64,000 nucleotides of DNA from Alphaproteobacteria bacterium (GTDB lineage: Bacteria > Pseudomonadota > Alphaproteobacteria > CALKHQ01): positions 7,211 through 71,210 of the forward strand of contig JBHJOG010000207.1 in assembly GCA_050329975.1 (NCBI GenBank), in the 5' to 3' direction. Shown in pieces: positions 31,421 through 58,638 of this stretch. A model generated the notes under the pieces. It ran no database searches. It was given only the letters and a program-made list of their open reading frames with translations, and had not been told where the DNA came from. Each line of letters begins with the position of its first letter. Position 1 is the stretch's first letter. The position numbers and the translations under genes are program-made.

Positions 31421-31698
31421 GTTCGCTCCCTGGCGCCGTGCCTAGCCGGGACCTGCCCGGGCGACGGCCGCGCCATATCACGCAAATCTAGACCGCCGTC
31501 CGCCTCGCTGAAAGGGTCGCCCGCCGCCCGGTCGCGGCGGGAGCGGCGCGGCAGTGTGCTGACGGTTAGCAAAGCGTTCAGGGTTAGGCAACCAAGCTGG
31601 GGCTCGGCGAACGCGCTGCGCTGGAATCGATGGACCACTGCTGGACCGCTCGCTACGGTGCGCGCGCGAAACTGCAGGATACCGAAAGGAATCGGCGA

Positions 31699-32349
31699 AT
31701 GCCCGAGATCGATGACATCATGATTTTGCGCTTGGCCTGCTCCAAGCTCTGTCACGATCTCATCAGCCCGGTCAGTGCCGTGAACAACGGTCTCGAGCTG
31801 GTCGGCGATTCGATGGCCGGCGACGTCGAGGCGATGGACCTGATCACATCGAGCGCGCGCGCCGCCGCCGACCGGCTGCAGTACTACCGGGTCGCCTTCG
31901 GCTTCTCCGGCGGATCGGGCCAGTCTCTCAATGCGCTGCAGGCTCTGCTCAAGCCGTTCGTCGCCGACGCGAAATGCCAGTCGTCGTGGACCGTTGATCC
32001 CTCGGTGGCCCAGTCGGTGCTGTCGATCGATGCTGCACAGATCGTGCTGAATGCGATCGCGGCCACGCTGGATTGCCTGCCGCGCAGCGGTGATGTGCGG
32101 GTGGCGCTGACCTCGGCGGGAGACCAACTCCTGACCCTGGTGATCGACGTCGAGGGGCCCTCGGTGCGGATTCGAGACGAGCTGCGCGATGCCCTGACCA
32201 GCCCGATGGGTGAGATCGAGCTTACGGTCCGCGGCGTGCACGGAATCCTGTTGCGCCAGGTGGCGGCCCGCGTCGGCAGCAAGGTTGTCCTGTCGGCCGG
32301 GGACGGTCAAGTCGCCCTGACCGTGGGCCCCATCCCGGTCGACCGCTAA
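31699..32349 (+). CDS. chpT: ChpT-like histidine phosphotransferase (CckA-ChpT-CtrA relay family)
   Basis: LACSKLCHDLISPVSAVNNGLELVGD matches the ChpT phospho-His motif region (CHDFISPxxAI..GL.LL). The rest is a degenerate HATPase-like C-terminal half. An AAGGA Shine-Dalgarno precedes the start; the track start at 31630 was rejected. Confidence 0.65.
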   Translation: MPEIDDIMILRLACSKLCHDLISPVSAVNNGLELVGDSMAGDVEAMDLITSSARAAADRLQYYRVAFGFSGGSGQSLNALQALLKPFVADAKCQSSWTVDPSVAQSVLSIDAAQIVLNAIAATLDCLPRSGDVRVALTSAGDQLLTLVIDVEGPSVRIRDELRDALTSPMGEIELTVRGVHGILLRQVAARVGSKVVLSAGDGQVALTVGPIPVDR

Positions 32350-38423: not shown

Positions 38424-39188
38424 TCAGCCGGCGTGGGCGAAGGATACGTAGCCGTCGTCGTCGTGGCCGACCGGGACGCCGGCACCGGCCGGGCGTCGCT
38501 CGCCGCCTTCGGCCTGGGGATCGCGCAGTACATAGCCGCGGCCCCAGACGGTCTCGATGTAGTTGGAGCCGCCGGTGGCGGTCGACAGCTTCTTGCGCAG
38601 CTTGCAGACGAACACGTCGATGATCTTCAGCTCCGGTTCGTCGATGCCGCCATAGAGGTGGTTGAGGAACATCTCCTTGGTCAGCGTCGTCCCCTTGCGC
38701 AGGCTCAGCAGCTCGAGGATGCCGTATTCCTTGCCGGTCAGGTGCAGCGGCTTGCCCTCGACCTCGACCGTATGGGCGTCGAGGTTCACGGCCAGCTTGC
38801 CGGTGCGGATGACGGATTCGGCGTGGCCCTTGGACCGGCGGATGATGGCGTGGATTCGCGCGATCAGTTCGGCCTTGTCGAAAGGCTTGGTCAGATAGTC
38901 GTCGGCGCCGAAGCCCAGGCCCTTGACCTTGTTGTTCGGCTCGTTGAGGCCGGACAGGATCAGGATTGGAGTCTGCACCCGCGCCGCGCGCAGCCGGCGG
39001 AGCACCTCGTAGCCGTCGATGTCAGGGAGCAGCAGGTCGAGAACGATGATGTCGTAGTCGTAGAGCTTTCCGATCTCCAGGCCATCCTCGCCCAGGTCGG
39101 TCATGTCGACGACAAAGCCTTCGGATTGCAGCATCATCTGGATGCTTCGTGCAATCGGAGTATCGTCTTCTACCAACAAAACCCGCAT
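38424..39188 (-). CDS. ctrA: Cell-cycle/motility master response regulator CtrA (OmpR family)
   Basis: MRVLLVEDD...[23 protein letters not shown]...TPILILSG...[68 protein letters not shown]...[12 protein letters not shown] is near-identical in pattern to Caulobacter CtrA. A ~25-aa C-terminal tail is present. Confidence 0.9.
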
Positions 39189-39426: not shown

Positions 39427-40776
39427 ATGCCCGTTCTCGTCGACACCCTGGTCAGGGAGGTTTCTGCCATCCCGAACCCGCAGATCTTCGGGCGGGTGAC
39501 CGCAGCCCAGGGCATGCTGATCGAGGTCGGCGGCGCCCACCGCGCGATGTCGGTCGGCGATCGCTGCCGCATCCGCACGCGCAGCCGCGCGCCATTGCGC
39601 TGCGAGGTGGTCGGCTTTCACAAGGACAGAGCGATCGTGATGCCGTTCGGCCCGGCCGAGGGTATCGGACTCGGCTGCCGGGTCGAGCTCAGCGGCGCCG
39701 CGGCCTATGTCCATCCGGGGCGGGGCTGGCTCGGTCGCGTGATCAACGCGCTCGGCGAGCCGATCGACGGCAAGGGCCCGCTGCCGCACGGCCCACGCGG
39801 CTACGAGATCAGGGCGATGCCCCCTGCCGCCCACACGCGCGAGCGCGTCGGCGCGAAGATCGACCTCGGGGTCAGAGCGCTCAACAGCTTCGTCACCTGC
39901 TGCCGCGGCCAGCGCATGGGCATCTTTGCCGGCTCCGGCGTGGGCAAGTCGGTGCTGATGTCGATGCTGGCGCGCTACACCGCCTGCGACGTCTCGGTCA
40001 TTGCGCTCGTCGGCGAGCGCGGGCGCGAGGTGCAGGAGTTCATCGAGGACGACCTGGGGCCGGAAGGCCTGGCGCGCAGCGTCGTGGTGGTCGCAACCTC
40101 CGACGAGCCGCCCCTGATGCGCCGGCAGGCTGCCCAGCTTGCGCTGTCGGTGGCCGAATGCTTCCGGGATGAGGGCAAGGACGTGCTCTGCCTCATGGAC
40201 AGCGTCACCCGCTACGCCATGGCGCTGCGCGAGATCGGGCTTTCGGCCGGCGAGCCGCCTACGACACGCGGCTATCCGCCATCGGTGTTCGCGGAATTGC
40301 CGAAGCTCCTGGAGCGCGCCGGGCCGGGAGCTGCCGGCCAGGGCAGCATCACCGGGCTGTTCACCGTACTGGTCGAGGGCGACGATCACAACGAGCCGAT
40401 CTCGGATGCCGTTCGCGGTATCCTGGACGGCCACATCGTGATGGAGCGCGCCATCGCGGAGCGCGGCCGCTATCCGGCGATCAACGTGCTGCGATCGATC
40501 TCCCGGACCATGCCGCAGTGCAACAGCCGCGAAGAGATGGCGCTGGTGCTGACCGCGCGTCGTCTGCTGTCGACCTATGGAGACATGGAGGAGTTGATCA
40601 GGCTCGGCGCCTATCGTCCGGGGAGCAACCCGGAGGTCGACGAGGCGATCGCGGTGCAGCCGCAGCTCGAGGCCTTTCTTAACCAGATGAAAAGCGAACA
40701 CTCCGATTTTGCCGAAACCTACGCCCAACTCGCCGCGATTCTCGGCGAAGCCCCCCCGACAGGACAATCTGGATGA
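39427..40776 (+). CDS. fliI: Flagellum-specific ATP synthase FliI
   Basis: It has Walker A (GSGVGKS), Walker B and the F1/T3SS ATPase fold. The track start at 39307 was rejected for the ATG at 39427. Confidence 0.9.
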
Positions 40777-41201
40777 AAAGCCTCGATAGCCTGATTCGCC
40801 TGCAGAAGTGGCAGCTCGACGAGAAGCGTCGGCAGCTCGGCGACCTGCGCCGGATGCATGCCGACTTGGCCGCGGCGATTGCGCGCCTCGAAGAAGACAT
40901 CGCCAACGAGGCCGTGCTGGCCCGCAAGGACCAGTCGCTCGGCGCCACGTTCGGCGCGTTCGCGCAGGCCGCCGAGGAGCGCAAGCAGAAGCTCGTCGGC
41001 TCCCTGCGCGAGCTCGACAGCCAGATCGACCTCGTCGAGCACGAGATCGGTGCCGCCTTCACCGAACTGAAGAAGGTCGAACTGATCAAGGATAGCCGCG
41101 AGGCGCGGATTCGTCAGAGCAGCGCCCGCCGCAGCCAGGCGACCCTCGACGAGATCGGCTCGATCATGGCCCGTCGCCGGCAGGCCGGCGAAAGCTCCTG
41201 A
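40773..41201 (+). CDS. fliJ: Flagellar export protein FliJ
   Basis: A 142-aa coiled-coil protein that starts with an ATGA overlap of the fliI stop. FliJ normally occupies this position after fliI. Confidence 0.65.
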
Positions 41202-41205
41202 CGGC

Positions 41206-42714
41206 CTACACCGTCACGTCGGGATGCACCTGCTCGGCCCGCACCGCTGGTGCCGTGAGGTCCGGCTGCTCGACGAAGCGAATATGGCCCTTCAGGCCCA
41301 TTGCCGCGATCGTGTCGCCGAACAGCGCCTCGATCTCAGCCCGGGACTCGGCGCCGAATGCGGTGCGACTGATCAGCAGCAGGTCTAGCCGGCCGGTTCC
41401 CGCGAGGCCGTCGAGCCGGACCGGGCCGAGCCTGGAGAATCCGAAGTCGATCTGGAATCGAGCCCGGTCGTCTTCGCCGCCCTCGTCCTGCCCGTCATCG
41501 GGCTCCTGCCATGCAACCCTGAGCGGCTGCCAGCCGTGGGCGGTCGCGATCGGCAGGTAGAGCGCCCGCCAGAGTTCGCTGCCGGCGGAGGCGGCCTCGG
41601 TCTCCAGGCGCGACCCGCGCTGGGAGAGTGCCTCGGCGAGACGCTTGAGCAGGCTGTCGCGTCCCTGTTTCTGCATCGCCTGCTGTGCGTCCTGGCCCAC
41701 CAGGGCACCGACGCCGCCTCCCTGCAAGGCGGCCATCAGGAACAGGGTCGACGACCCCAGCTTGGGGCCCATCCGTGGCAGCCGGGCGTCGACGGCAGCG
41801 GCCAGCGACGGCTGGGCGACGAGCGCCGCCATCATCTCGTCGAGCAAGCCCCCCAGTTGCGCGATCGATGGAGCCGGCGGTCCGACGCTTCGGGCTGTCG
41901 CCAGCACCTCCAGCCGAAGCCTGGCGCCGTCCGGCAGGTCGCCGCGATCCAGCACCAGCGTGCCGTTGGCAAAGTTCAGCACCGGCTGGCCCAGGGCGGC
42001 CCGGCCGCTCACGGTCGCCTCGAACGGTGCCGGCACGGTCAGCGACGGGGGCTGAGCGGTACCCGGCCGGGCGGTTGCCTGGCTTCCGCCCAACAGGGGC
42101 TGGATCGCCGGCTCGATCGCCAGGATCCGCACGGTGACCGTCGTCGGGCCGATGGCGGGAAGAGTGGGGCCGGCCGGCGGCGGTTGCGCTGCGGCGTTCG
42201 ATGGCGCCGTCTGGGCGGCGGGCAACAGTCGCGCCTGCACCACGTCGCCGGCGGCCAGCGTCGGGATGGCATGGCCAGTTGCCGGCGCGGACGCGCCGGC
42301 GGTGCCGGTTGCAGGCTGGGTCTGCGGGGGCAGCAGGCGCACGACTCCCCCGGTATCCACCGCGAGCCGCAGCGAGGCGCCGGGCTCGGTGGTCAGGCCG
42401 GGCGCCGTCACCAGGATTCGTCCCAGCGCCGTCTCCAGGCGAATCGTGTCCGCAGCCTGGGTTGCGACCACCCGCGCCGCGAGCGTCACCGGCGCAGGCA
42501 GGCTGCGCAGATCGACCGAGGATTCGCTGACGGTGACCCGGGTTCCGCTCTCGGCCGTCGTCGACGGCGCCGGTTGCTGCCTGGGCGCTTCCTGGGTCCC
42601 GGTCGCGGTCGAGGGGGACGGGGCTGCCGGCGCCGCCCTGCCGCTCTCGGAAGCCGCAGGCAGAGGCCGCGCGACGACCGCCGTCACCGGGGCGACGACG
42701 GGAACTTCAACCAT
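41206..42714 (-). CDS. Ala/Pro-rich hypothetical protein, last gene of the flhA-flhF-flhG operon
   Basis: The start overlaps the flhG stop by 8 nt. The N-terminal ~250 aa are low-complexity and Pro/Ala/Thr/Gln-rich. The C-terminal ~200 aa are globular (…ALYLPIATAHGWQPLRVAWQEPDD…RFQIDFGFSRLGPVRLDGLAGTGRLDLLLISRTAF…). No recognised family. Confidence 0.5.
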   Translation of the reverse strand: MVEVPVVAPVTAVVARPLPAASESGRAAPAAPSPSTATGTQEAPRQQPAPSTTAESGTRVTVSESSVDLRSLPAPVTLAARVVATQAADTIRLETALGRILVTAPGLTTEPGASLRLAVDTGGVVRLLPPQTQPATGTAGASAPATGHAIPTLAAGDVVQARLLPAAQTAPSNAAAQPPPAGPTLPAIGPTTVTVRILAIEPAIQPLLGGSQATARPGTAQPPSLTVPAPFEATVSGRAALGQPVLNFANGTLVLDRGDLPDGARLRLEVLATARSVGPPAPSIAQLGGLLDEMMAALVAQPSLAAAVDARLPRMGPKLGSSTLFLMAALQGGGVGALVGQDAQQAMQKQGRDSLLKRLAEALSQRGSRLETEAASAGSELWRALYLPIATAHGWQPLRVAWQEPDDGQDEGGEDDRARFQIDFGFSRLGPVRLDGLAGTGRLDLLLISRTAFGAESRAEIEALFGDTIAAMGLKGHIRFVEQPDLTAPAVRAEQVHPDVTV

Positions 42715-43513
42715 TTGTCCGAACCAGCATGTCGCCGATGATGGCGGCGATCGCCTCCACGTCCGCGCCTGCCGGCGAGCCGGGGTGGCAGGTCAGGGTC
42801 GGCGTCTGCCGCCGAATGCTGTCCTTGACCCGGGAATCACGCCGGACAATGCCGAGCAGCGGCGGGCTGAACTTGAGGAAGGATTCGCAGGCGCGTCGCA
42901 TTGCGCCGTAGGTGCGCTCGCCCTCCTTGAGGCTGTCGGCCATGTTGACCACGATCTCGAAGCTGAGCTGCGGGTAGCGCGCGCGGGCGACCTTGATGAA
43001 GGCGTAGCCGTCGGTGAGCGAGGTCGGCTCGTCGGTGATGAGCACGATGCAGCGGCCGGCAGCGCCCGCCAGCCGCATCACCGAATCCTCAATGCCGGCG
43101 CCGAGATCGAGCACGATCGCGTCGTAGGTCGGAGCCAGATCGAACAGCTCGTCGGTCAACGTTCCCAGCTGGGACTGGCTCATCCGGCCGAGCGCGCCGG
43201 ACCCGGACCGGCCGGCGATCACGTCGAAGCGCCCGTCGCCTGCCTTGCAGATCACGTCGCGCAGCGGCACCCCGTCGATCACGGCGCGCGCTATGTCCTG
43301 GTCCGGCATCAGGCCGAGCTGGACGTCGACATTGGCCAGGCCCATGTCGGCATCGAACAGCAGGGCCCTGCGCCGCTTCAGCCCGAGGGCGTGGGCCAGC
43401 GTCACCGAGAACCAGGTCTTGCCGACCCCGCCCTTGCCGGACGCGACCGCGATGATCCTGCCGGGGGACAGCAACGGCATGGCCTGTGCCCGTTCAGCCG
43501 GTGTCATGCGCAT
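42707..43513 (-). CDS. flhG: MinD/ParA-family flagellar number regulator FlhG (FleN)
   Basis: Deviant Walker A (AVASGKGGVGKT) and a MinD-like body. The start is ambiguous among 43537, 43513 and 43507, each an ATG overlapping the flhF end. Confidence 0.85.
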   Translation of the reverse strand: MRMTPAERAQAMPLLSPGRIIAVASGKGGVGKTWFSVTLAHALGLKRRRALLFDADMGLANVDVQLGLMPDQDIARAVIDGVPLRDVICKAGDGRFDVIAGRSGSGALGRMSQSQLGTLTDELFDLAPTYDAIVLDLGAGIEDSVMRLAGAAGRCIVLITDEPTSLTDGYAFIKVARARYPQLSFEIVVNMADSLKEGERTYGAMRRACESFLKFSPPLLGIVRRDSRVKDSIRRQTPTLTCHPGSPAGADVEAIAAIIGDMLVRTNG

Positions 43514-44541
43514 TGCTCCTCTGATCCGTCGTTCCATCGATGCTCGGCGCTGCCTCCGCTCTTGGTCATCAGCAGGCGGGCGAGGCTGGCCGGGGTCACC
43601 GGCCGAAGGCCGTTGCCGAGGCGCGGCGAGATCCCGACGCCGGAGAGCTTCAGATGGCCGCCATTGCCGCGGACCGCCGCCGCCGTCACCAGGCTGCCGA
43701 GCCGGCGGGCGGCATCGACCCGGCTTATGATGAGATGGGTGGCCCCGATCTCGGCGAAGGCCAGCGCCGTGTCCGCCGCCTCGAGCGGATCGCCGCCTGC
43801 CGGGAGCACCAGCACCCCGTGGCCGCGCACGCCGGCGATCAGGGCTGCGGCACGCGCCATGTCGTCAGGCTCGAACGGGTTGGCGCCGGCGGTGTCGACG
43901 ATGGCGAGCACGGTTCGCCCGGCCGCCTCGTGCGCGGCGCGGCGCGTGCGCCAGCCTGCGGCCAGCGTCGCCGAGTTCTCCGCGCTCTCCACCGCGAGCC
44001 CCATGTGCTTGGCCAGCCCGGCGAGCTGTGCGAGCGCCCCGGTCTTCACCGTGTCCGCCGCCATCAGGTCCACGGCGACCCCGCCCATCATCGCGTGGGC
44101 GGCGAGCTTGGCGGCGGTGGTGGTCTTGCCGGCACCGGGCGGACCCACCAGCACGATCGGGCGCAGGCTGGGCCGGAACGGGGCGCCGCCGAAGCGCAGC
44201 CGCGTCTCGAACAAGGCCGCCATCGCCATCTCCGGCTGCAGGTCGCGGTGAGCGGCCGCGCCGGCGACGAACTGGCGGGCCAGGGCCTCCGGCACCCCAT
44301 GGCCGGCGAGCGCAGTGCCGATGACCTCCTCGACCGACGGACCCGCAGGCGCCGTCGGGAGGGTCTCGAAGTCCTCCTCGTCGTCGTAGCCGGGCGCCGG
44401 CGGCTCGCAGGCCGCGATCACCTTGACCATGCCGTCGCGACGGCTCTCGCTGGAGACGATGATCGCATCGTCCCCCATCTCCTCGCGGATCAGCCCCAGC
44501 GCCTGGGGCATGTCCTGGGCGATGTAGGTCTTGATCCGCAT
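43504..44541 (-). CDS. flhF: Flagellar biosynthesis SRP-type GTPase FlhF
   Basis: The N-terminus MRIKTYIAQDMPQALGLIREEMGDDAIIVS is typical of FlhF. It has the GTPase G1 (LVGPPGAGKTTT), G3 (DTAG) and G4 motifs. Confidence 0.85.
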   Translation of the reverse strand: MRIKTYIAQDMPQALGLIREEMGDDAIIVSSESRRDGMVKVIAACEPPAPGYDDEEDFETLPTAPAGPSVEEVIGTALAGHGVPEALARQFVAGAAAHRDLQPEMAMAALFETRLRFGGAPFRPSLRPIVLVGPPGAGKTTTAAKLAAHAMMGGVAVDLMAADTVKTGALAQLAGLAKHMGLAVESAENSATLAAGWRTRRAAHEAAGRTVLAIVDTAGANPFEPDDMARAAALIAGVRGHGVLVLPAGGDPLEAADTALAFAEIGATHLIISRVDAARRLGSLVTAAAVRGNGGHLKLSGVGISPRLGNGLRPVTPASLARLLMTKSGGSAEHRWNDGSEEQCA

Positions 44542-44544
44542 CGC

Positions 44545-46671
44545 CTAGACCTGGCCCACGGTGCGGATCTTCGCCTTGGGGTGGATCTCGTTCTGCGACA
44601 TGACCACGGTGATCGGCCGGAACCGCTCGACGATCGAGCGGACATAGGGCCGGATCGCCGGGCTGGTCAGCAGCACGGGCGTCTCGCCCAGCATCGCCTG
44701 GTGCTCGAAGATCTGCCGTACCCGGGCAATGAACTCCTGCAGCCTGGTCGGCGCCATCGCAAGCTGCCGTTCCTCGCCCTGGCCGACCAGCGCCTCCGCG
44801 AAGGCGCGCTCCCAGTCCGGCGACATGGTCACGATCGGCAACACGTTGTCGTGGTTGAGATTGGCATCGCAGAGCTGGCGCGCCAGCCGGCCGCGGACAT
44901 GCTCGGTCAGCAGCAGCACATTGCGGGTGTGGCCGGCGGCCTCGGCGACCGCCTCGAGGATCGTCGGCAGGTCGCGCACCGACACCCGCTCGCGCAGCAG
45001 GCCCTGCATGATCCGCTGGATGACGGAGGTGCTGACCTGGGACGGGATCAGGTCCTCGATCAGCTTCTTGTGCTCGCCGGATATCTCGTCCAGCAGCTTC
45101 CTGGACTCGGCGAACGACAGCAGGTCGGCCATGTTGTCCTTTATCAGCTCGGTCAGGTGCGTGGTCACCACGGTTGCCGGGTCGACCACGGTGTAGCCGC
45201 GGAACAGCGCCTCCTCGCGGTTGTTCTCGCCGATCCATTTCGCCGGCAGCCCGAAGGTCGGCTCGCGGGTGGCGTCGCCGCTGATCGGAATCTCCTCGCC
45301 GCGCGGGTCCATCACCAGCAGCATGTTCGGCCTCAGCTCGCCGCGCCCTGCCTCGATCTCCTTGATGCGGATCGAATAGTCGTTGGCCGCCAGCTGCAGG
45401 TTGTCCTGGATCCGCACCGCCGGCATCACGAAGCCCATCTCCGAGGCGAGCTGCCGGCGCAGGGACTTGATCTGGTCGGTCAGCCGCTGGCCGGCCGGCC
45501 CGTTGATCAGCTGCAGCAGGCCGAAGCCGAGCTCGAGCCGGATCAGGTCCATGTGCAGGGCCGTGGTTATCGGCTCCTCCACCGGCGGAACCGCCCGCAC
45601 CGCCTTGGCCTCTTCCATTGCCGCCGCGGCGACCACGGCGTTGCGCCGCCTGTCGACCACATAGGCGATGCCCCCGGTCGCGCCGGCCATGGCCAGGAAC
45701 GGGAGCATCGGGATGCCGGGCAGCAGCGACATGGCCAGCATCAGGACCGCGCACAGGCCAAGGGCGCGCGGGTAGCCGCTGAGCTGGGCGAACACCGCCT
45801 TGTCGGCGCTGCCGGCGACGTTCGACTTGGAGACGAGCAGGCCGGCTGCCACCGAAACCACCAGCGCGGGGATCTGGGAGACGAGGCCGTCGCCGACGGT
45901 GAGCAGGGTATAGGACTGGGCGGCCTCTTCCATCGTCAGGCCCTTCTGGGCGGTGCCGATGATGATGCCGCCGACGATGTTGATCACGGTGATCATCAGG
46001 CCGGCGACGGCGTCGCCGCGGACGAACTTCGAGGCGCCGTCCATCGCGCCGAAGAAATTGCTCTCGTCCTCCAGCGCCTTGCGGCGGTCGCGGGCCTGGG
46101 TCTCGTCGATCAGGCCGGCGCTGAGATCGGCATCGATCGCCATCTGCTTGCCGGGCATCGCATCCAGGGTGAAGCGTGCCGACACCTCGGCGATCCGGCC
46201 CGAGCCCTTGGTGATGACGACGAAGTTCACGATCACCAGGATCGCGAACACCACGATGCCGATGACGAAGTTGCCGCTCATCACGAAGCTGCCGAAGGCC
46301 TCGATGACATGTCCCGCCGCCCCGGGACCTTCGTGGCCGTCGCTCAGGATCAGCCGAGTCGACGCCAGGTTGAGCGACAGCCTGAGCAGCGTCGCGATCA
46401 GCAGGACCGTCGGGAAGGAGGAGAACTCCAGCGGCTTGGCGATGAACAGGCTGGTCATCAGGATCAGGACGCCGAGGGTGATCGAGATCGCCAGCGCGAT
46501 ATCCAGCAGCCAGGTCGGCATCGGCAGGATCAGGACGACCAGGATGCAGACCAGGCCGAGCGCAAGCACTACGTCCCCGCCCTTGGCCAGGCGCAGGATG
46601 CGCATGAAACCGGCGCGCGCGTCGTCGGACTTGGAACCGGCGCTGGGCGCCGGCAGGCTGGACTCGCTCAT
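44545..46671 (-). CDS. flhA: Flagellar export apparatus protein FlhA
   Basis: 708 aa with N-terminal TM domain motifs (FPTVLLIATLLRLSLNLASTRLIL) and a cytoplasmic FlhA_C domain. Confidence 0.95.
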   Translation of the reverse strand: MSESSLPAPSAGSKSDDARAGFMRILRLAKGGDVVLALGLVCILVVLILPMPTWLLDIALAISITLGVLILMTSLFIAKPLEFSSFPTVLLIATLLRLSLNLASTRLILSDGHEGPGAAGHVIEAFGSFVMSGNFVIGIVVFAILVIVNFVVITKGSGRIAEVSARFTLDAMPGKQMAIDADLSAGLIDETQARDRRKALEDESNFFGAMDGASKFVRGDAVAGLMITVINIVGGIIIGTAQKGLTMEEAAQSYTLLTVGDGLVSQIPALVVSVAAGLLVSKSNVAGSADKAVFAQLSGYPRALGLCAVLMLAMSLLPGIPMLPFLAMAGATGGIAYVVDRRRNAVVAAAAMEEAKAVRAVPPVEEPITTALHMDLIRLELGFGLLQLINGPAGQRLTDQIKSLRRQLASEMGFVMPAVRIQDNLQLAANDYSIRIKEIEAGRGELRPNMLLVMDPRGEEIPISGDATREPTFGLPAKWIGENNREEALFRGYTVVDPATVVTTHLTELIKDNMADLLSFAESRKLLDEISGEHKKLIEDLIPSQVSTSVIQRIMQGLLRERVSVRDLPTILEAVAEAAGHTRNVLLLTEHVRGRLARQLCDANLNHDNVLPIVTMSPDWERAFAEALVGQGEERQLAMAPTRLQEFIARVRQIFEHQAMLGETPVLLTSPAIRPYVRSIVERFRPITVVMSQNEIHPKAKIRTVGQV

Positions 46672-46714: not shown

Positions 46715-48097
<1,383 letters not shown>

Positions 48098-48143: not shown

Positions 48144-48515
48144 TCACGACCGGTCCGACTTGATGATTTCGGTCATGGTGACCCCGAGCCGATCGTCGAC
48201 CACAACGACCTCGCCGCGGGCGACGAGGCGGTTGTTGACGAAGATGTCGATCGGCTCTCCCACCTTCCGGTCCAGCTCGACGATCGCGCCGGGGCCGAGG
48301 CGAAGCAGGTTGCTGACCTGCAGCTGCGACTTGCCGAGGACCGCCGAAACCTGGACCGGGATATCGTAGACCGTCTCCAGCTCGCGCGACGTGCGAACCT
48401 GGTTCGGGTCCTCGTCGTCGGAAGCGATCCGCCGGGCCTCCGCGGCCATAGCCGCCGCCATGTCGGTGTCGTCCTCGTCCAGCGTGTTGAGAACCAGATC
48501 TCCGTCTTCGTTCAT
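48144..48515 (-). CDS. fliN: Flagellar motor switch protein FliN
   Basis: The SpoA/FliN C-terminal domain is [66 protein letters not shown]. Confidence 0.9.
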
Positions 48516-49258
48516 GACCGGGTCTCCTGTTCAAGCTTTGGCCGCGACGGATCGTCCGGTTCGGGCCTGGTGTCGGGTGCGCCGCTGTGGCCGGGCGCTG
48601 TCTGTGATCGGTCGTCCAGTGCCTGGGCGACCAGTTGCTCGATCTGCTGCAGCACGGCCTCGCTGTTGCGCTCGGCGCCCCCGTCGGCCCACTCGACCAC
48701 GCAGCCGTCTCGCGGCAGCTTGTGGTCGGCGAGAATGACGAGCTTGCCGGGCCAGGCGCGGGCGGCAGCCATGGCCTCCAACGGCGCGGTCGCCGCCTCC
48801 AGCACGTCGGGATGGAACTTGAACACGATGGCCGGCTCGTGCCGCGCCAGCTCCAGGCACTCGGCGACGACCGTCTCGATCTCCTGCAGGCCGTGCGCGG
48901 CCGAGAGCCGCGGGAACAAGGTGCGGACCGAGGCCATCGCCAGGGCCAGGCCGTCGCGCCGCGCGTGGTCTGCCACATAGACCAGCTGCTCGCGCAGGCT
49001 CGCGAGCTGCCCATCGATCCTGGCGACAGCCTGCTCGGTCGCCGCCGCGATGCTGCGCAGCGCCTGCACCTCGCCGGCGGCCAGGCCTTCGGCATGGCCG
49101 GTCGACCGCGCCATCTCCAACTCGTCGCGGTTGAACGTCGGCTCGGGCGGTGGCGCCTCGGCCCGCAGCCGGTCCCCCCGGTCGGCCCTGTCGGCCCGGT
49201 CGAACGATGTCTCGAAGAGGAACTTTTCCAACTGCTGTCCCGAACGGCCGGTCAATAG
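48512..49258 (-). CDS. fliH: Flagellar assembly protein FliH (start uncertain)
   Basis: It sits between fliG and fliN. The FliH-like region is ...[52 protein letters not shown].... The probable TTG start at 49256-49258 overlaps the fliG stop. A later ATG in ELEMARSTG is the alternative. The Arg-rich track extension to 49474 was rejected. Confidence 0.55.
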
Positions 49259-50277
49259 ACCAGCTCGTCCTCTCCCTTGCCTTCGTTGATGACGATCTCG
49301 CCTTTTGCCGCCAACTCCTTGGCGATCCCGATCATCTCCGACTGCGCCTCGTCGACGTCGCGCAGGCGGACGGGCCCCATGGCCGTCATGTCGTCCTTCA
49401 GGATCTTGCCGGCGCGCTCGGACATGTTGCCGATGAACAGCTGGCGCAGGCTTTCCGATGCGCCCTTCAGGCACATCGCGAGCTTGTCCTTCGGCACCGA
49501 GCTCATCAGCCTCTGCACCGAGGTGGAGTCGAGCTTGCCCAGGTCCTCGAAGGTGAACATCAGCGATTTGATCTTCTCGGCCGCGTCGCGGTTGCGCTCT
49601 TCCAGCGCGGACAGGAAGCGGCTCTCGGTCGACCGATCGAGGTTGTTGAAGATGTCGGCCATCATCTCGTGGGCGTCACGCCGGTTGGTGCGGGCGAGGT
49701 TGCTCATGAACTCGTTGCGCAGCGTGCGCTCGACGTCGTCGAGCACCTCCTTCTGCACCGCCTCCATGCGCAGCATCCGCATCACCACTTCCATCGCGAA
49801 CCCTTCGGGCAGGTTGGTCAGCACGCGCGACGCATGGTCCGGCCGCACCTTCGACAGCACGACGGCGACCGTCTGCGGGTATTCGTTCTTCAGGTAGTTG
49901 GCGAGCACCGATTCATTGACGTTGCAGAGCTTCTCCCACATCGTCCGGCCGGCCGGACCGCGGATCTCCTCCATGATCAGGTCGACCCGGGAGTCGGGCA
50001 GGACCTTCAGCAGCAGGCGCTCGGTGCTGTCGAAAGTGCCGACGATGGCGCCGGTCGACATCAGGTTCTGGGCAAATTCCTTGAACAGCTGCTCGACTAC
50101 CGGTGACGCGACCGAGCCGAGCTGGGCCATGTGCTGGCAGATGTCGCGGATCTCGTCGTCCTGCATCTCGGCGAACAGCTTCGATGCATGCTCTTCGCCG
50201 AGCGCCAGCAGGATGATGGCGGCCCGGTCGGGCCCCTTCAGCTCGCTGTAAGCGTTGATCCTGCGGAAGGCGGCCAT
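49252..50277 (-). CDS. fliG: Flagellar motor switch protein FliG
   Basis: A typical 341-aa FliG with a C-terminal torque helix (...[22 protein letters not shown]...). Confidence 0.95.
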
Positions 50278-51990
50278 TTAGTTCTGACCTTCTTCGGTGT
50301 AGAGCCAGCTGCGCAGAAGTGCCACCGCCTCCTGCGGGTGGTTGTCGATGATCTCGCTGACCTTGTTGATCGAGGAGCGACGGACCTGGCCCTCGATCTT
50401 GGCGAGGTCGATGAAGTCGTCCATCGCGGTGCGGCTCGGCGCCTTCGGCCGCCCGTCGTCTTCCGCCTCGCCCTCGCTGCCGGCGGGCCCCGTCAGCAGC
50501 GGCTGGCCGTCCGCGCCCATCGTTGCCGCGATCGCAGGGTTGCCCGCCGCGCCGGCAAGCGCCGGCACGGCTCCGCCGGCTCCGCTCATGCCGCGCATGA
50601 TTGGCCGAACCACGAAGATGATCGCCACCAACGCCAGCACGACCAGCAGCAGGATTTCGATCAGCCGCGTGAGGTCGATGCCGAACTCTTCCAGCATTCC
50701 AGGAACCTCGACGCCGGAGCCGACCTGCATCTCGGCAAGGGACATGCCTTGGGCGAACTGCAGGTTCTGCACCTCCAATGTATCGCCGCGCGCAGGGTCG
50801 TAGCCGACCGCCGATTCGACCAGGGCCTGCATCGCCGCAAGCTCCTCCTGGCTGCGCGGCCGGTAGCTGATCGTGGAGACCTCGTTTCCGTCCGCATCCG
50901 TGACGACCGTCGGGTCGTAGGAACCGTCGATCATCACGGCGATGGACAGCCGCCGGACAGCGCCGGGCGCAAATGTGGTCTGGGTCTCGACCACCGACAG
51001 GCGGTTGGCGACACGTTCCTCCAGCGAGCTGTCGCTCGAGAAGCTGGTGGTACCGTCCACCGCGCCATCCTGGGGGTTTGGCAGTTCGGCGAGCACGGTA
51101 ACGCCGTCGCCGCCTCGCTGGTCGGTGGATTCCCGGGTTCTCTCGACGGTCGTGACCTCGGCCGGCACGACGCCTTCCGGGTCGTAGCTGGTCGACGACT
51201 GGGTCACCAGGTCGAAGTTCATCGATGCCGTGACCTTGGCCTGGACATGACCGGCCCCGACATAGGCACTCAGCAACTCCACGATCCGGTGTTCGAGCTC
51301 GGCCTCGTAGGCGGTCTGCAGCTGCTCCGAGCGGCTGGTCTGGGTGGACTGGCTGAGCAGGCGGCCGCCCTGGTCGATCACCGAGACGTTGTCCGGTTCC
51401 ATGCGGTTGACGGCCGAGGCGACCAGGTTCTGGATCGCCATCACCTGGTCGGCGGAGATCGTACGTCCGCCACGGATGTCCAGAATGATCGAGGCGCTGG
51501 GCGGCTGGGTCTCCCGGCTGAACGTCATCCGCTGCGGCAGCACGAGGTGCACGCGCGCGTTCTGCACGGAGTCCAGCCAGCGGATGGTGCGCGCGAGCTC
51601 GCCCTCGATCGCGCGCTGCTGGTTGATCTCGATGATGTTGCTGGTGGTGCCGAGCGCGTCGAGATTGTCGAAGATCTCGTAGCCGATCACGCCATAGCCC
51701 GGCAGGCCGTTGGCCGCCATGTCCAGCCGCAGGCGGGCGACCTCGGTTGACGGCACCATGATGGTCGTGCCGCCGTTGGTCAGCTGGTAGTCGACCCCGC
51801 GTGAGTCGAGCTCGCCGACGATCGCGGTGCTGTCGCCCGGCTCCAGGCCGGCGAACAGCGGGGTCATCTCGGTGGCGCTGAACCGCGAGATGATATAGGC
51901 GAACAGTCCGATCAGCCCGGCGGCGACCAGCCCGAGCGCGATGATCCTTCCCGGACCAAGACTGCGCAATGTGTTGATCAGGCCCTGCAC
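50278..51990 (-). CDS. fliF: Flagellar MS-ring protein FliF
   Basis: 570 aa with N-terminal TM, a YscJ/FliF domain and a C-terminal TM (ILLLVVLALVAIIFVV). GTG start with a GGGGAG Shine-Dalgarno 10 nt upstream. The stop abuts the fliG ATG. Confidence 0.95.
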   Translation of the reverse strand: MQGLINTLRSLGPGRIIALGLVAAGLIGLFAYIISRFSATEMTPLFAGLEPGDSTAIVGELDSRGVDYQLTNGGTTIMVPSTEVARLRLDMAANGLPGYGVIGYEIFDNLDALGTTSNIIEINQQRAIEGELARTIRWLDSVQNARVHLVLPQRMTFSRETQPPSASIILDIRGGRTISADQVMAIQNLVASAVNRMEPDNVSVIDQGGRLLSQSTQTSRSEQLQTAYEAELEHRIVELLSAYVGAGHVQAKVTASMNFDLVTQSSTSYDPEGVVPAEVTTVERTRESTDQRGGDGVTVLAELPNPQDGAVDGTTSFSSDSSLEERVANRLSVVETQTTFAPGAVRRLSIAVMIDGSYDPTVVTDADGNEVSTISYRPRSQEELAAMQALVESAVGYDPARGDTLEVQNLQFAQGMSLAEMQVGSGVEVPGMLEEFGIDLTRLIEILLLVVLALVAIIFVVRPIMRGMSGAGGAVPALAGAAGNPAIAATMGADGQPLLTGPAGSEGEAEDDGRPKAPSRTAMDDFIDLAKIEGQVRRSSINKVSEIIDNHPQEAVALLRSWLYTEEGQN

Positions 51991-52143: not shown

Positions 52144-52443
52144 TCAGCCGAGATGCGGGCGGTTGTCGACGTTTTCCCGGTAGTCCTGCAGCCGGGTGGT
52201 GCGAAGGCCCCGCATGCCGTGGCGCTCGATCAGACGCTGCCAGGACAGGAATTCCTCGACCGACAGGCGGTAACGCTTGCAGGCATCTTCGAGGCTGATC
52301 AGGCCCGAGCGGACACCGGCGACGACCTGCGCCTTTCGCTTGATCACCCAACGCTTCGTGTTGGGCGGCGGTAGATCATCGACGCTGGATGGAGCCCCGA
52401 CCGAGTCGAGGATCGCGTCGTCGAAGCCTTTGGTTGTGTCCAT
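52144..52443 (-). CDS. DUF1153-family small protein (putative HTH DNA-binding) within flagellar cluster
   Basis: MDTTKGFDD...RWVIKRKAQVVAGVRSGLISLEDACKRYRLSVEEFLSWQRLIERHGMRGLRTTRLQDYR matches my recollection of the DUF1153 family pattern. The Arg-poor upstream extension in the track was rejected. Confidence 0.55.
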   Translation of the reverse strand: MDTTKGFDDAILDSVGAPSSVDDLPPPNTKRWVIKRKAQVVAGVRSGLISLEDACKRYRLSVEEFLSWQRLIERHGMRGLRTTRLQDYRENVDNRPHLG

Positions 52444-52637: not shown

Positions 52638-53996
52638 TTAGCGTTTCAGGCGGATAAGCTCATCCAGCATCTCGTCGCTGGTGGTGATGATGCGCGCGTT
52701 TGCCGAATAGGCGCGCTGGGTGATGATCATGCTGGTGAACTCCTCGGCGAGGTCGACGTTCGAGGCTTCGAGCGATGCCGAGGAGATCTTGCCCGCGCCG
52801 GCGGTGTTGGCCTGCAGCAGCAGGTACTCGCCCGAGTCCGCGGTCTGCGCATAGGCGTTGCCGGTCCGCGACTGCAGCCCGTTCGGGTTGTTGAAGGTGG
52901 CAAGCGGCAACTTGTAGATCTTCTTGCGGCTGCCGTTGTCGAAGAACGCGGTGACGATGCCGTCCTTGTCGATCGACACGCCGGAATAGGTGCCGAACGG
53001 CAGGCCGTTCTGCTCCAGCGTCTTGGGCGTGTACGGCCCGTCGAGGAAGGTCATGCCGCTGGCCGCGCCATAGGTGCCGAGCGCGAGCGACATCTGATTG
53101 CTGGCGACATCGCCCAGCTCGCCGCCCGAGCCGGTGAAGTTGAATGCCTGCGTGCCTCCCGGATTGAAGTTGAGCGTCATCGACACCGGGCCGGTTCCGC
53201 CCGTCGGGGTGCCGTTGGTCGCGAAGTCGAGGGTTCCGATCACCATGTAGTTGGTATCCGACAGTGCCGCCGCGGGCGTCGCGTCGGTCGTGTCGGAGTC
53301 GTAGGTGGCCGAGGCGACGCCATCGCTGGTGCGGGTCATGCCGGTGACACGCGCCTCCCATTGGTTGGTGCCGTTGTAGTGCCAGGTCAGTTCGACATCG
53401 TGCGGCACGCCCAGCGAGTCGTAGATCGTCACGTTGGTCGTCTCGGTCTGACCGACCGTCGCGGTAGCGGGCAGGTTGGCGCCGATCTGGATCTCGGTGG
53501 TCCGCTCCGCCAGCGTCGACAGCCCGGCCACGTTGACCGTCTCGAGCGCCGATATCGAGCTCGTGTTGCTCGGCAGGGCTTCGTTCGCGTCGAGCGGCCA
53601 CCCTTGCAGGTAGAACCCACCCGCGTTGACGAAATTGCCGTCCGAGTCGACCGTGAACGAGCCTTCACGCGAGAACAGGAATTCGTTGCCCGTGCCACCG
53701 TTCGGCCCTTCGTTGACGACAAAGAAGCCGGAGCCGTCGATGGCAAGGTCGGTCGGCGAACTCGAGCCCTGCAGCAGACCCTGCTGGTCGATGAGGCGCA
53801 GGGGCAGGGCGGCGACGCCGCCCGGGGTATAGCCGGAATTTGTCGAGGACTGGGTGACCAGGGTCGAGAATCGTGCCCGCGATCCCTTGTAGCCGATCGT
53901 GTTCACGTTGGAGATGTTGTCGGCGATCATGCCGAGGTTCTGGCTGTTTGCGGCAAGACCCGAAACGCCTGACGTCATCGCGCCGTAAATGCTCAT
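52638..53996 (-). CDS. flgE: Flagellar hook protein FlgE
   Basis: N-terminal MSIYGAMTSGVSGLAANSQNLGMIADNISNVNTIGYK and C-terminal ...NVDLAEEFTSMIITQRAYSANARIITTSDEMLDELIRL are rod/hook conserved termini. Confidence 0.9.
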   Translation of the reverse strand: MSIYGAMTSGVSGLAANSQNLGMIADNISNVNTIGYKGSRARFSTLVTQSSTNSGYTPGGVAALPLRLIDQQGLLQGSSSPTDLAIDGSGFFVVNEGPNGGTGNEFLFSREGSFTVDSDGNFVNAGGFYLQGWPLDANEALPSNTSSISALETVNVAGLSTLAERTTEIQIGANLPATATVGQTETTNVTIYDSLGVPHDVELTWHYNGTNQWEARVTGMTRTSDGVASATYDSDTTDATPAAALSDTNYMVIGTLDFATNGTPTGGTGPVSMTLNFNPGGTQAFNFTGSGGELGDVASNQMSLALGTYGAASGMTFLDGPYTPKTLEQNGLPFGTYSGVSIDKDGIVTAFFDNGSRKKIYKLPLATFNNPNGLQSRTGNAYAQTADSGEYLLLQANTAGAGKISSASLEASNVDLAEEFTSMIITQRAYSANARIITTSDEMLDELIRLKR

Positions 53997-54053
53997 GGCC
54001 GTGTGCTCCTTGCTGGCCCGGGGCGGCTGTCCTGCGCGCGCCCGGTCATGTCG

Positions 54054-54764
54054 CTAAGACTGTGTGTCGCTCTCGTCGTCGATGGGTGCGGCAGGCGGCG
54101 GGGCAGGCAGCGTCGGCGAGCGCACCGCGGTGATTTCCTGCAGATAGATCGCGAGGTCACCGATCATCACGACCGGCTGTCCGTCGCGGGATTCGACGCC
54201 TGTCACGACACCGACGATGCCGGCCTCTGCCGTGACCGGGTTGCCGGCTGCGTCGGTGGCCTCGATGGCGATGCTGTAGACGCCGTTGGCGGCGACCTTG
54301 TTGTCGCTGGTCAGGCCGTTCCACGAGATCTGGTGCGTGCCGGCGGTGACGGGCCCCTGACCGGAGAAGACCACGTTTCCGCTCGAGTCGCGGATGGTGT
54401 ACTTGGCCGACGCCGCGGCGTCCTTGAGCGTGTAGGCGAACTGCGCCTCGCCGTTGGCCAGGTTGGCCTTGTCGCCGATCGCCGAGATCTCCTTGCCGAT
54501 GAAACCGAGAGCCGACAGCGTCTGGCCGGCGAACTGCACCTGGACCAGCTGCTCGAGCTGGGTGTTGGTCAGGATCGCCTGCTCGACGCTGGTGAACTGC
54601 ACCAGCTGGCTGGTGAACTCGTTGGTCTCCATCGGCGACAGCGGATCCTGGTTCTTCAGCTGTTGGGTGAGCAGGGTCAGGAAGTTGTCGAAGTTGGAGG
54701 AGAGGCCGGCCAGCGCGCTGGTCGTGCCGCTGGTGTTCGTGTTGGCGACTGGACTGACGTTCAT
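54054..54764 (-). CDS. flgD: Flagellar hook assembly/capping protein FlgD
   Basis: FlgD N-terminal motif (SNFDNFLTLLTQQLKNQDPLSPM) plus a C-terminal Ig-like domain. It lies 57 nt upstream of flgE. Confidence 0.9.
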   Translation of the reverse strand: MNVSPVANTNTSGTTSALAGLSSNFDNFLTLLTQQLKNQDPLSPMETNEFTSQLVQFTSVEQAILTNTQLEQLVQVQFAGQTLSALGFIGKEISAIGDKANLANGEAQFAYTLKDAAASAKYTIRDSSGNVVFSGQGPVTAGTHQISWNGLTSDNKVAANGVYSIAIEATDAAGNPVTAEAGIVGVVTGVESRDGQPVVMIGDLAIYLQEITAVRSPTLPAPPPAAPIDDESDTQS

Positions 54765-54776
54765 GGTGTGGCCCCG

Positions 54777-56261
54777 CTATACGAAGAGGTCGACGACCAG
54801 GTGGCTGTCGCTCTGGTGTGTGATGATCATGCCGTCGACGGCCTCGCCGCCCTCCGGCTCGGACTCGCTCTCGGCATCGCGGCCGCTTCGCTTCGCGTCG
54901 TCCTGGTCGCCGGGGCTCTGCTGACGCAAAGAGAAGCTCAGGTCGCCGGCGCTGGTGTCGAACCCGGCGTCGGCCAGGGCGCGCTCGAGGTCGCGGACGT
55001 TGCGCTGCAGCTGGTCGAGCGTCTCCTGGCGGTCGGCAGCGACGGTCATCGTCATCCGCCCGTCCTGCCCGAGCTCCATGCGGACGTCGATCCGGCCGAG
55101 TTCGCGCGGATTGAGCCGGATTGATACCCGGTCGACTCCGGTCTCGGCCGCATGCGCGATGGTGAGACCGATGCGCTCGGCGAACTGGGGACCGTTCAGC
55201 CGGGGCATGTGCTGGGGCTGCGCAGGCCCGTCGACGCGGGCGGGCTGCGCCGTACGCTCGCCCAGGGCGGCCGCGCCGGGCGTTCCCGATCCGGTCGGCG
55301 CAGGCGGTGCGGATGCTCCCTCGCTGACGGCCGGCAGGCTGCCGGCAGCGGCAGCCGTCGCGGCTGCACCGCGCCCGCCGGCCGGATTGTTGGCCATCGC
55401 GGCTGCGATTGCGCTGAAGTCGGCGGCGGCGCCCTGTTCCTTGCCCAGGCTGGGCTGGCTCTGTTTGCCCAGCGCCTTGGCCGGCGCGTTGCCAGCCATA
55501 ATGCGCTGGCCGGGCGGCATGGCCGTCTGTGGGCCAGGCGCCTGTTGGGTGCCGGCCAGCGAATGCGCGAACAGCGCGACGGCGAGGCCGGGGGCCGGCG
55601 GTCCGGCCGGGCCGGGCTCGGTCCCCGCCGCCGCACCGCGCGACTGCATGACGGCAAGGAGGTTCGCCAGGATGTCGTCGTTGGCGGGCGTGGCTGCGCC
55701 GTCCGCCAGGGAGAGTGCGCCCGGCTGCGCGGCTCCTGGGATCGGGTCGGCGGCACCTGCCTGGCCCGGGGTGGCCCGGTCCGAGGCGGTCTGGCCCGGG
55801 GTGGCCTGATCCGGGGTGGCCTGATCCGGGGCGGTCTGGTCCGGCGCCGCCGGTCCTGTCGTGGCCTGGGCCGGGTCGGCCACGGGTCCGGCGGCGTTGG
55901 GTGTGGCCGGTTCTGCGACCGGCTCGACCTGGGTCTCGGCGGGGGGCGGGGTCTCGGTGGCCTGCGCCGTTGGCAGTGTGACCGGCTCGTCGTGCCGGCG
56001 GTCGTCGCTGCTCTGGCGGGCGGCCCGGTCGACGTGCCGGCGATCGGCGGCGTCGCGCTGTGCATAGTCGCGCGCCGGCTCCGGCCGCTCGCGCTCCGGG
56101 ATGTCCCGGCGGCTCGTCGCGCGGTCGGTGTCGGTACGGCTCTCGCGCGCACTCATCGCGCGGACCAGCTCGTCGAACGGATGTCCCGTCGCCGGCTTGC
56201 CGGCCCGGCCTGGACCCGAGACGTCGAACCGCGGCTGGTCGTCGCGAATGGCTATCTGCAT
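54777..56261 (-). CDS. fliK: Flagellar hook-length control protein FliK
   Basis: The central region is Pro/Ala-rich and repeat-containing. The C-terminal Flg_hook domain is (RVSIRLNPRELGRIDVRMELGQDGRMTMTVAADRQETLDQLQRNVRDLERALADAGF). It sits directly upstream of flgD. Confidence 0.75.
   Translation of the reverse strand: MQIAIRDDQPRFDVSGPGRAGKPATGHPFDELVRAMSARESRTDTDRATSRRDIPERERPEPARDYAQRDAADRRHVDRAARQSSDDRRHDEPVTLPTAQATETPPPAETQVEPVAEPATPNAAGPVADPAQATTGPAAPDQTAPDQATPDQATPGQTASDRATPGQAGAADPIPGAAQPGALSLADGAATPANDDILANLLAVMQSRGAAAGTEPGPAGPPAPGLAVALFAHSLAGTQQAPGPQTAMPPGQRIMAGNAPAKALGKQSQPSLGKEQGAAADFSAIAAAMANNPAGGRGAAATAAAAGSLPAVSEGASAPPAPTGSGTPGAAALGERTAQPARVDGPAQPQHMPRLNGPQFAERIGLTIAHAAETGVDRVSIRLNPRELGRIDVRMELGQDGRMTMTVAADRQETLDQLQRNVRDLERALADAGFDTSAGDLSFSLRQQSPGDQDDAKRSGRDAESESEPEGGEAVDGMIITHQSDSHLVVDLFV
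55757..55850. repeat. In-frame 15-bp tandem repeat inside fliK encoding (A/T)PDQ(A/T) pentapeptide repeats
   Basis: The DNA CCGGGGTGGCCTGAT is repeated, and the protein reads APDQTAPDQATPDQATPGQTASDRATPGQ. Confidence 0.7.
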
Positions 56262-56430
56262 CGCCTGTTCCCTAAGCTACCTTGCCAGCCAGGCTTCGCA
56301 AGCCGCGGGCCATCGCAGAGGTCAGGGTGATGTCCTTGATATCACGAGATTTTTGCGCGAGCACCGCGCAGCGCCGGGACCCTGCCTGCCAAGGGTTGCC
56401 GGGTGGGCCCGGCAACTGTTGCCGGTAGGA

Positions 56431-56462
56431 AAGAAAAAACGCCGCTGAGGGGTCAGCGGCGT
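56431..56462 (-). terminator. Rho-independent terminator downstream of flaF
   Basis: The minus-strand sequence reads GCCGCTGA-CCCC-TCAGCGGC followed by GTTTTTTCTTT. Confidence 0.75.
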
Positions 56463-56493
56463 CGTGGGCAGGCGCGGGGAAGGGAGGAAGCGG

Positions 56494-56928
56494 TCAGGCG
56501 ACGAACCGGTTGGCCATCGGTGCCGTGGAGGCCGGCTGGGCAGGCGCGGCGACCGTGCCGTCGGTCCGCTGGCCGGAAAGGCCCAGCGCGATGTTGCGGT
56601 TGATGTCAATCAGCACCTGCAGGCGCTCCGGCGCCACCCTGCCGAGGGCCGACACGGTATGGCGGTCGACGAACCCGGCCAGGCTCAGCATGTTCTGCTT
56701 GATCTCGGGCGGCAGCGGATTGCTGTCCTCGGCGATGTCGGCCTGAAACAGCGTCCACAACCGCCAGTTCAGCCTGAGCGCGCTGCGATACTGCTCGATG
56801 TCGGCATCGGCGCGCTGCACCGCATCCAGTCGGCGGGCGGCTTCCAGCAGCGCCCGAGATTCGGTTTCGCGCGGATTGGACCCGAGTTTCTGCGCCTGCT
56901 GGTAGGGGTTGTTACGCGGAGCCGGCAT
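56494..56928 (-). CDS. flaF: Flagellin synthesis regulator FlaF
   Basis: MPAPRNNPYQQAQKLG...ESRALLEAARRLDAVQ...LRLNWRLWTLFQADI is a FlaF-family pattern. It is adjacent to flbT. Confidence 0.8.
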   Translation of the reverse strand: MPAPRNNPYQQAQKLGSNPRETESRALLEAARRLDAVQRADADIEQYRSALRLNWRLWTLFQADIAEDSNPLPPEIKQNMLSLAGFVDRHTVSALGRVAPERLQVLIDINRNIALGLSGQRTDGTVAAPAQPASTAPMANRFVA

Positions 56929-57307: not shown

Positions 57308-57371
57308 GGGTCGGGTGCCTTCTGCACGGGCCGGCGCAGGGCCGGCGGCTTCAGATGTCGTGTGAGGGAGC

Positions 57372-58610: not shown

Positions 58611-58638
58611 AGATCGCGATCGAAGGTTCTTGGTTCGG

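Follow-up and report, generated by a model that had tools for sequence, protein, structure and literature searches.

The window analysed here, a 64,000-nucleotide stretch of an alphaproteobacterial contig, carries a flagellar gene cluster in which an open reading frame of 502 codons closed by a TAG stop, referred to below as X, is the last gene of the same-strand run fliF-fliG-fliH-fliN-flbD-flhA-flhF-flhG (Table 1). The ATG of X (42712-42714) and the TGA of flhG (42707-42709) give an 8-nt overlap, within ATGGTTGA, and from the other side fliI and fliJ converge on X, with the stop codon of fliJ 4 bp from that of X. An initial annotation, made from the sequence alone, had described X as a protein whose family is unknown, almost certainly co-translated with flhG at the end of an flhA-flhF-flhG operon; its coordinates and overlap prove exact, the terminal position is borne out by the same-strand neighbours and the convergent fliJ, and translational coupling to flhG is supported by the overlap. 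No promoter-like site was found around X, and the one terminator-like site detected nearby, inside fliJ, is within chance expectation.

Table 1. Genes of the flagellar cluster and parts of the X protein, with positions in the window (residue numbers refer to X)
Feature	Position	Strand	Remarks
fliI	39427-40776		Upstream of fliJ
fliJ	40773-41201	+	Convergent with X
X	41206-42714	-	Unnamed alphaproteobacterial family, encoded after flhF-flhG
X, low-confidence tail	41209-41268	-	Residues 483-502; ends DVTV
X, T3S4-like α/β domain	41269-41568	-	Residues 383-482; predicted
X, helix bundle	41587-41865	-	Residues 284-376; family motif LFFLxALxGGDxxxWLG
X, β-domain copy 2	41899-42033	-	Residues 228-272; small OB/TRAM-like barrel; opens the C-terminal module
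X, linker	42034-42324	-	Residues 131-227; Ala/Pro/Thr/Gly/Gln-rich
X, β-domain copy 1	42325-42546	-	Residues 57-130; pLDDT about 80; conserved in close homologues
X, disordered N-terminal tail	42547-42714	-	Residues 1-56; Ala/Pro/Val/Thr/Ser-rich; pLDDT about 30-35
flhG (MinD/ParA-type ATPase)	42707-43537	-	CbiA/ParA/MinD matches; NCBI gene call starts at 43507 (266 aa)
flhF (SRP-type GTPase)	43504-44541	-	SRP54 domain; TIGR03499 E 2.6e-33
flhA (export gate)	44545-46671	-	FHIPEP E 3e-260
flbD-type sigma-54 activator	46715-48097	-	
fliN	48144-48515	-	Upstream of the flbD-type gene
fliH-like gene	48512-49255	-	
fliG	49252-50277	-	
fliF	50278-51990	-	
flgE	52638-53996	-	
flgD	54054-54764	-	Directly downstream of canonical fliK
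fliK, canonical	54777-56261	-	494 aa; Flg_hook PF02120 E 6e-16

The window DNA is ~70% G+C, and many long spurious ORFs overlap the X region in other frames; in DNA so full of chance ORFs, length alone is no proof of a gene. That X is a real gene is established by an in-frame GC3 of 0.85, by full-length homologues and by a confident model of its C-terminal part. Eight close homologues, at 44-61% identity, conserve the protein over its full length including Met1, and the start Met-Ala/Val-Glu/Asp is kept among them.

The protein is soluble by prediction, with a pI of 5.5. AlphaFold gives a model of low overall quality for the whole chain (pLDDT 56); residues 228-502, modelled with 24 diverse sequences, reach a pLDDT of 84.5 and a pTM of 0.67. 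Where the initial annotation saw a low-complexity N-terminus of ~250 aa followed by a globular C-terminal domain of ~200 aa, the N-terminal tail is disordered and the linker rich in Ala, Pro and Thr, but they flank a folded β-domain at residues ~57-130, and the C-terminal part is folded as anticipated, but as a module of ~275 aa (228-502) with three folded parts. The last of these, in the predicted model, consists of a β-hairpin and an acidic loop followed by a β-β-β-α-β core (RFQIDFGFSRLGPVRLDGLAGTGRLDLLLIS...IRFVE). Two short conserved strands, GDVVQARLLP and VTVRILA, are carried by the linker, the most length-variable part of the protein across the family.

Family-wide, the conserved module of ~275-285 aa always forms the extreme C-terminus, preceded by an Ala/Pro/Gly/Thr-rich region of 157-696 aa (median 262) in complete proteins, and the last four residues are conserved as G-[VL]-[TV]-[AV], D standing for G in X. 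An HMM of β-domain 2 picks up another copy close to the N-terminus, at residues ~40-90, in most family members, and six copies in two long ones; the Foldseek matches of this small domain are OB/TRAM barrels (PAN N-domain, TrmA TRAM domain). X shows neither a transmembrane segment nor a signal peptide, its maximum 19-residue Kyte-Doolittle hydropathy being 1.4 (a value of 1.8 is reached in only 1 of 155 relatives, and the other 154, like X, have no hydrophobic stretch that could span a membrane); this fits a cytoplasmic or type III-exported protein.

The X family is large, alphaproteobacterial, and left unnamed by RefSeq and the curated libraries. A word-indexed protein search returned the eight close homologues, five to eight of them with alignments, low-complexity words apparently filling the candidate list; a profile built from these eight and run exhaustively against 1.84 billion cluster representatives retrieved 2557 clusters (50% identity) at E <= 1e-3 and 1877 at E <= 1e-10. 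X itself has no match at E <= 1 in Pfam or NCBIfam, and among 32 diverse members none has a consistent Pfam match, nor Flg_hook at E <= 0.1. Named sources label family members ‘hypothetical protein’, as RefSeq does the Azospirillum lipoferum 4B homologue WP_014188891.1 (615 aa; locus tag AZOLI_RS19710). A full-text literature search found no published description of the family, and the Rhodospirillum centenum genome paper names flhF and fleN, the X gene being absent from its list.

The order flhA-flhF-flhG-X is found in the window's own clade (loci L001-L003) and also in L004-L006, whose members are only about 28-30% identical; overlapping stop and start codons at X are usual throughout L001-L006, by 4-8 nt in several. 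The most conserved motif, RF..D....SRLGP.[QR].DG, was turned into a degenerate DNA pattern, which matched each of the seven known loci and occurs once in the window, where chance would give 0 matches. Scanned over one genome per GTDB species, the pattern yielded at least 120 matches, 118 of the 120 listed encoding the X module. Among the matches listed, flhG stands immediately upstream of X in at least 51 of the 65 loci with enough upstream DNA, and in four further ones in which it was missed through overlapping open frames. The initial annotation had held that its proposal would fall if X were not conserved downstream of flhG in relatives or belonged to a known unrelated family; the position is kept in the distant L004-L006 and in these loci, and neither X nor its 32 relatives matches such a family. 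Exceptions comprise flhA-flhG-X arrangements without flhF (L044, L056 and L060), flhA-X (L049) and flhF-X in which flhG is not adjacent (L030), and in ~7 of the 65 informative loci X lies beside unrelated genes (dnaG, ftsK, uvrC, pntB).

Taxa among the matches listed include Azospirillum, Magnetospirillum, Thalassospira, Roseospira and Rhodospira; Stellaceae, Inquilinaceae, Kiloniellaceae and Zavarzinia; Kordiimonas, Emcibacter and Micavibrio; and many metagenome-assembled genomes labelled ‘Rhodospirillales’, ‘Rickettsiales’ or ‘Alphaproteobacteria’. On the A. lipoferum 4B replicon AZO_p2, the order runs fliH, fliN, motA, sigma-54 regulator, flhA, ‘GTPase’, ‘MinD/ParA family protein’, the hypothetical protein WP_014188891.1 and a further hypothetical protein of 117 aa. 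A tblastn search of plasmids and chromids recovered X in Azospirillum only, and canonical FliK also in Sphingobium, Methylobacterium, Erythrobacter and Paroceanicella. A small QueF-like gene follows X in 20 of 107 loci among the matches listed and is absent from the window, and so was placed outside the core unit and rejected as a hint of a chaperone.

Besides the small OB/TRAM-like barrels, the sole recognisable fold in the predicted models of X is of the T3S4 type, its C-terminal domain being predicted to adopt the β-β-β-α-β arrangement of that class. The substrate-specificity-switch (T3S4) domain of PscP, a ruler protein of the Pseudomonas injectisome (5cuk), came at or near the top in three structure searches; Foldseek placed it at rank 2 (prob 0.98) with the poor full-length model, and at rank 1 (E 0.014, prob 0.99) with the good model of residues 228-502. 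The structure prediction that the initial annotation had suggested for the C-terminal part gives a confident model, which resembles a T3S4 domain.

Profile comparison points the same way. An alignment of the T3S4 region of the X family (232 sequences, non-redundant at 80%) was set by hhalign against ten canonical FliK C-termini (those of the window's FliK, E. coli FliK and eight alphaproteobacterial FliKs), giving a score of 30.1 and a P of 2.4e-4 over 70 columns in the Flg_hook register, RF..D..LSRLGP.QLDG aligning with ..IRL.P.ELGRI.V. Controls all scored 15 or less: 13.7 for the reversed template, 12.6 for the reversed query, at most 13.7 for 30 column shuffles, and 15.0 for the β-domain and helical part of X. 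As a calibration, the same FliK alignment scores 27.4 (P 3.9e-4) against PscP, so X appears, by profile score, to be about as FliK-like as this accepted T3S4 protein; in the PDB the FliK profile retrieves 2RRL at E 8e-25 and 5cuk only at E 0.017. With a shallow X alignment the P against FliK is 0.009 (prob 3-5%), and against the single window FliK sequence the prob is 3%. BLASTP of X against the window FliK returned low-complexity matches only, and searches of PDB sequences with X profiles gave no meaningful match. A phmmer search of the PDB with the canonical FliK of the window also gave no match.

The likeness to FliK (PF02120; 2RRL) extends to the whole protein: both have an N-terminal region, a variable Pro/Ala/Gln-rich linker, a T3S4 or T3S4-like domain near the C-terminus, and a short disordered tail whose hydrophobic tip is conserved, and both are encoded in flagellar clusters. 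The two differ in several respects: the Pfam Flg_hook model misses X; the two OB-like β-domains and the ~95-aa helix bundle of X are absent from FliK; the canonical FliK end, G-x-[VI]-D-[IVL]-x-[VAIL] with a hydrophobic tip, has a conserved Asp that the tip of X lacks; and X follows flhF-flhG among early genes instead of preceding flgD-flgE. X has therefore been kept outside the FliK family proper, on the grounds of both sequence model and gene position. The candidacy of X for the hook-length FliK of this system was rejected, since a Flg_hook protein sits upstream of flgD-flgE in the same cluster, as a canonical fliK-flgD-flgE set 12 kb from X, which makes X an additional FliK-like protein. 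The window appears, on profile and model comparisons, to encode a single flagellar system of alphaproteobacterial type that includes two FliK-like proteins, and what seems to be new is a cryptic protein of T3S4 type whose architecture and genomic position are both without precedent.

Among other T3S4 proteins, YscP/PscP differs from X in belonging to an injectisome and not to a flagellum, in showing no direct likeness in sequence (P 0.14 when hhalign sets the PscP sequence against the X profile), and in lacking the extra domains that X carries. Xanthomonas HpaC is a non-secreted T3S4 protein that acts on the FlhB/HrcU-type gate from the cytoplasm and is not a ruler. HpaC-type proteins offer a possible mode of action for X; they are much smaller and belong to plant-pathogen injectisomes.

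The initial annotation had proposed a polar landmark or flagellar positioning factor, a suggestion that the analysis does not support. Known proteins of this kind, HubP, FimV and FipA in gammaproteobacteria and TipN, TipF and PflI in Caulobacter, are all membrane-anchored, HubP and FimV also binding peptidoglycan. X shares with all six a genetic association with flagellar placement genes, here flhF and flhG, and with HubP and FimV the long low-complexity stretches; it differs in having no transmembrane segment and no matching Pfam domain (LysM, FimV C-terminal, DUF2802 or coiled coils), and in a fold that is predicted to be T3S4-like instead. A membrane-anchored landmark was rejected for want of a transmembrane segment, and the combination of T3S4-like fold, FliK-like layout and lack of a membrane segment suggests a role at the export apparatus and not in placement.

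The reading tentatively favoured here, although it falls somewhat short of probable, is that X is a soluble factor of the ruler or switch type, acting at the export gate of the flagellum as a second such protein beside FliK. FliK and YscP are known to switch export specificity through the action of their T3S4 domain and C-terminal tail on FlhB-C/YscU-C, their linker serving as the ruler; from this known action, together with the layout, fold, tip and context of X, a comparable docking is proposed. X would be expressed together with the early genes fliF...flhA-flhF-flhG, to which it is coupled in translation, and its T3S4-like domain and C-terminal tip would dock on the cytoplasmic face of the gate, at FlhB-C or possibly FlhA-C, there setting or timing an export-specificity or assembly checkpoint. 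X might be an early secreted substrate with the linker as a spacer, or a non-secreted gate-binding factor; gate binding, secretion and any switching or measuring role are ascribed to it by analogy. Several observations weigh against this reading: no FliK sequence model recognises X; its helix bundle and OB-like β-domains have no counterpart in FliK/YscP; a canonical FliK is already present, with no known step that needs a second ruler; X is tightly linked to flhG/flhF, not to flhB or the hook genes; and the fold scores are moderate and based on predicted models.

That very tight flhG linkage is what favours the main rival, which we consider unlikely but well worth weighing, namely that X is a soluble partner of FlhF/FlhG whose T3S4-like fold is merely a protein-binding module. 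Such a partner might link FlhF/FlhG to the nascent MS-ring, C-ring or export gate, or alternatively modulate the FlhG ATPase or FlhF GTPase. Its genomic basis is broad: flhG directly precedes X in all 6 of 6 contexts looked up by protein as well as in at least 51 of the 65 informative loci, the two genes overlap by 4-8 nt in several, and, among the matches listed, X occurs only in lineages with flhF-flhG in a fliF/flhA operon (Rhodospirillales, Kordiimonas, Emcibacter, Micavibrio and others); on plasmids and chromids, too, X was confined to Azospirillum and canonical FliK was present in four further genera. The linkage is nevertheless imperfect, X persisting without adjacent flhF in three loci and without adjacent flhG in two (L030 and L049) and lying beside unrelated genes in the ~7 of 65 loci noted above, and the protein has neither the membrane anchor nor the LysM, FimV or DUF2802-type domain of known FlhF partners, its fold matching export-switch domains only. 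A functional link between X and FlhF/FlhG is possible.

Rather less likely still is that X is some other accessory flagellar component, such as a secreted rod or hook scaffold, a cap-like factor or a cytoplasmic assembly chaperone, with a T3S4 likeness born of convergence and no switching role. The OB-like barrels and helix bundle, absent from rulers, would suit such a component, as would the six tandem β-domains of some members, which are more like a structural beads-on-a-string protein; the placing of a T3S4 entry at or near the top in all three structure searches, the profile alignment in the same register, and the parallel with FliK in whole-protein layout and C-terminal tip argue otherwise. 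The notion that X is an open frame arisen by chance, or an artefact of composition in high-GC DNA, prompted by the long spurious ORFs in other frames and the low complexity of ~150 of its residues 1-227, was rejected on the conservation data and can be set aside almost entirely, given the GC3 in its frame, the full-length homologues at 44-61% identity, the 2557 related clusters, the conserved synteny and the confident fold prediction for the C-terminal module.

A more speculative and rather improbable scheme is one in which the Rhodospirillales-type polar flagellum uses two T3S4 proteins, FliK for the hook and X either as a ruler or gate timer of an earlier step or as a licence for one gate per pole. 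X would here be made with the earliest (fliF/flhA-class) genes and be coupled to FlhF/FlhG, and might time a step such as completion of the rod or basal body, or might license a single gate at each pole, tying export switching to flagellar number.

In Bacillus, as in gamma- and epsilonproteobacteria, FlhF/FlhG operons are well studied, and none is known to include an X-like gene. X is conserved across thousands of alphaproteobacterial lineages, yet it is annotated as a ‘hypothetical protein’, although it bears hallmarks of the class of length-measuring, specificity-switching type III secretion proteins; among its carriers, Azospirillum, Magnetospirillum and Rhodospirillum centenum are amenable to genetics. 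Should X prove to be a partner of FlhF/FlhG, it would be without a soluble precedent and would also be the first such partner described in alphaproteobacteria. If instead X acts on the export gate, a single flagellum would employ two T3S4 proteins, and the family would offer a route to an unknown assembly checkpoint, possibly one that couples export to flagellar number.

Stop codons of X, the 502-aa ORF closing the flhA-flhF-flhG series (minus strand, 41206-41208), and of convergent fliJ (plus strand, 41199-41201) are separated by 4 bp within window 41199-41208. There is no space here for an intergenic terminator; the transcript of each convergent operon must therefore end inside the coding region of the opposing operon.

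In relatives, X is followed by a small conserved protein (117-147 aa) that frequently overlaps the X stop codon. It occupies this place in 20 of 107 GTDB loci and is absent from the window. In A. lipoferum 4B it carries the label 'hypothetical protein'; its match to QueF-like PF14489 is weak, falling under the cut-off.

Coordinates of features in the window and at loci of X relatives
Feature	Location	Coordinates	Strand
Ribosomal_S30AE + cold-shock ORF	window	770-1396	+
CtrA-type response regulator and ChpT-type phosphotransferase (PF10090)	window	38424-39188 and 31630-32349	- and +
DUF1153 gene	window	52144-52443	-
flgE	window	52638-53996	-
flgD	window	54054-54764	-
Canonical fliK	window	54777-56261	-
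flaF	window	56494-56928	-
Flagellin gene, first of two	window	57372-58280	-
Flagellin gene, second of two	window	58639-59466	-
NeuB-family gene (sialic/legionaminic-acid synthase-type)	window	59955-60818	+
Class I methyltransferase	window	62626-63555	+
Small protein after X	L004	11464-11892	
Small protein after X	L005	9695-10138	
Small protein after X	L006	10217-10597	
Small protein after X	L007	2709-3113	
Small protein after X	L128	9465-9818	

Variation within the X family extends to repeat number: in P0037 (990 aa) and P0127 (869 aa) the small beta-domain is repeated in tandem, with six copies spaced ~100-118 aa in place of the usual two, making their N-terminal region a beads-on-a-string version. 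At L005 (6199-8004), on a 2-Mb contig, the gene call joins FlhF and FlhG into one 601-aa product with SRP54 plus ParA domains, which reflects a frameshift if it is not a natural fusion. The alphaproteobacterial X gene also occurs on L008 (with fliI and fliJ), L020 (with flhF and flhG) and L023 (with fliI), whose GTDB records bear the titles of MAGs of Patescibacteria, Pseudobdellovibrionaceae and Pseudomonas fluorescens; the three contigs were probably mis-binned into those MAGs.

Elsewhere in the window, one 208-aa ORF joins a ribosome hibernation/sigma-54 modulation domain (Ribosomal_S30AE) to a C-terminal cold-shock domain, a combination that may be an uncommon fusion. The remainder of X's own flagellar system occupies 52638-59466 (-), where the flagellin genes are directly adjoined by a NeuB-family gene and a class I methyltransferase gene, which suggests glycosylation of flagellin. 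In the clade to which the window belongs (L001, L002), a DUF1153 gene lies ahead of fliF, and the che operon is flanked by a response regulator of the CtrA type and a phosphotransferase of the ChpT type; this points to cell-cycle control of the CtrA type over the cluster.
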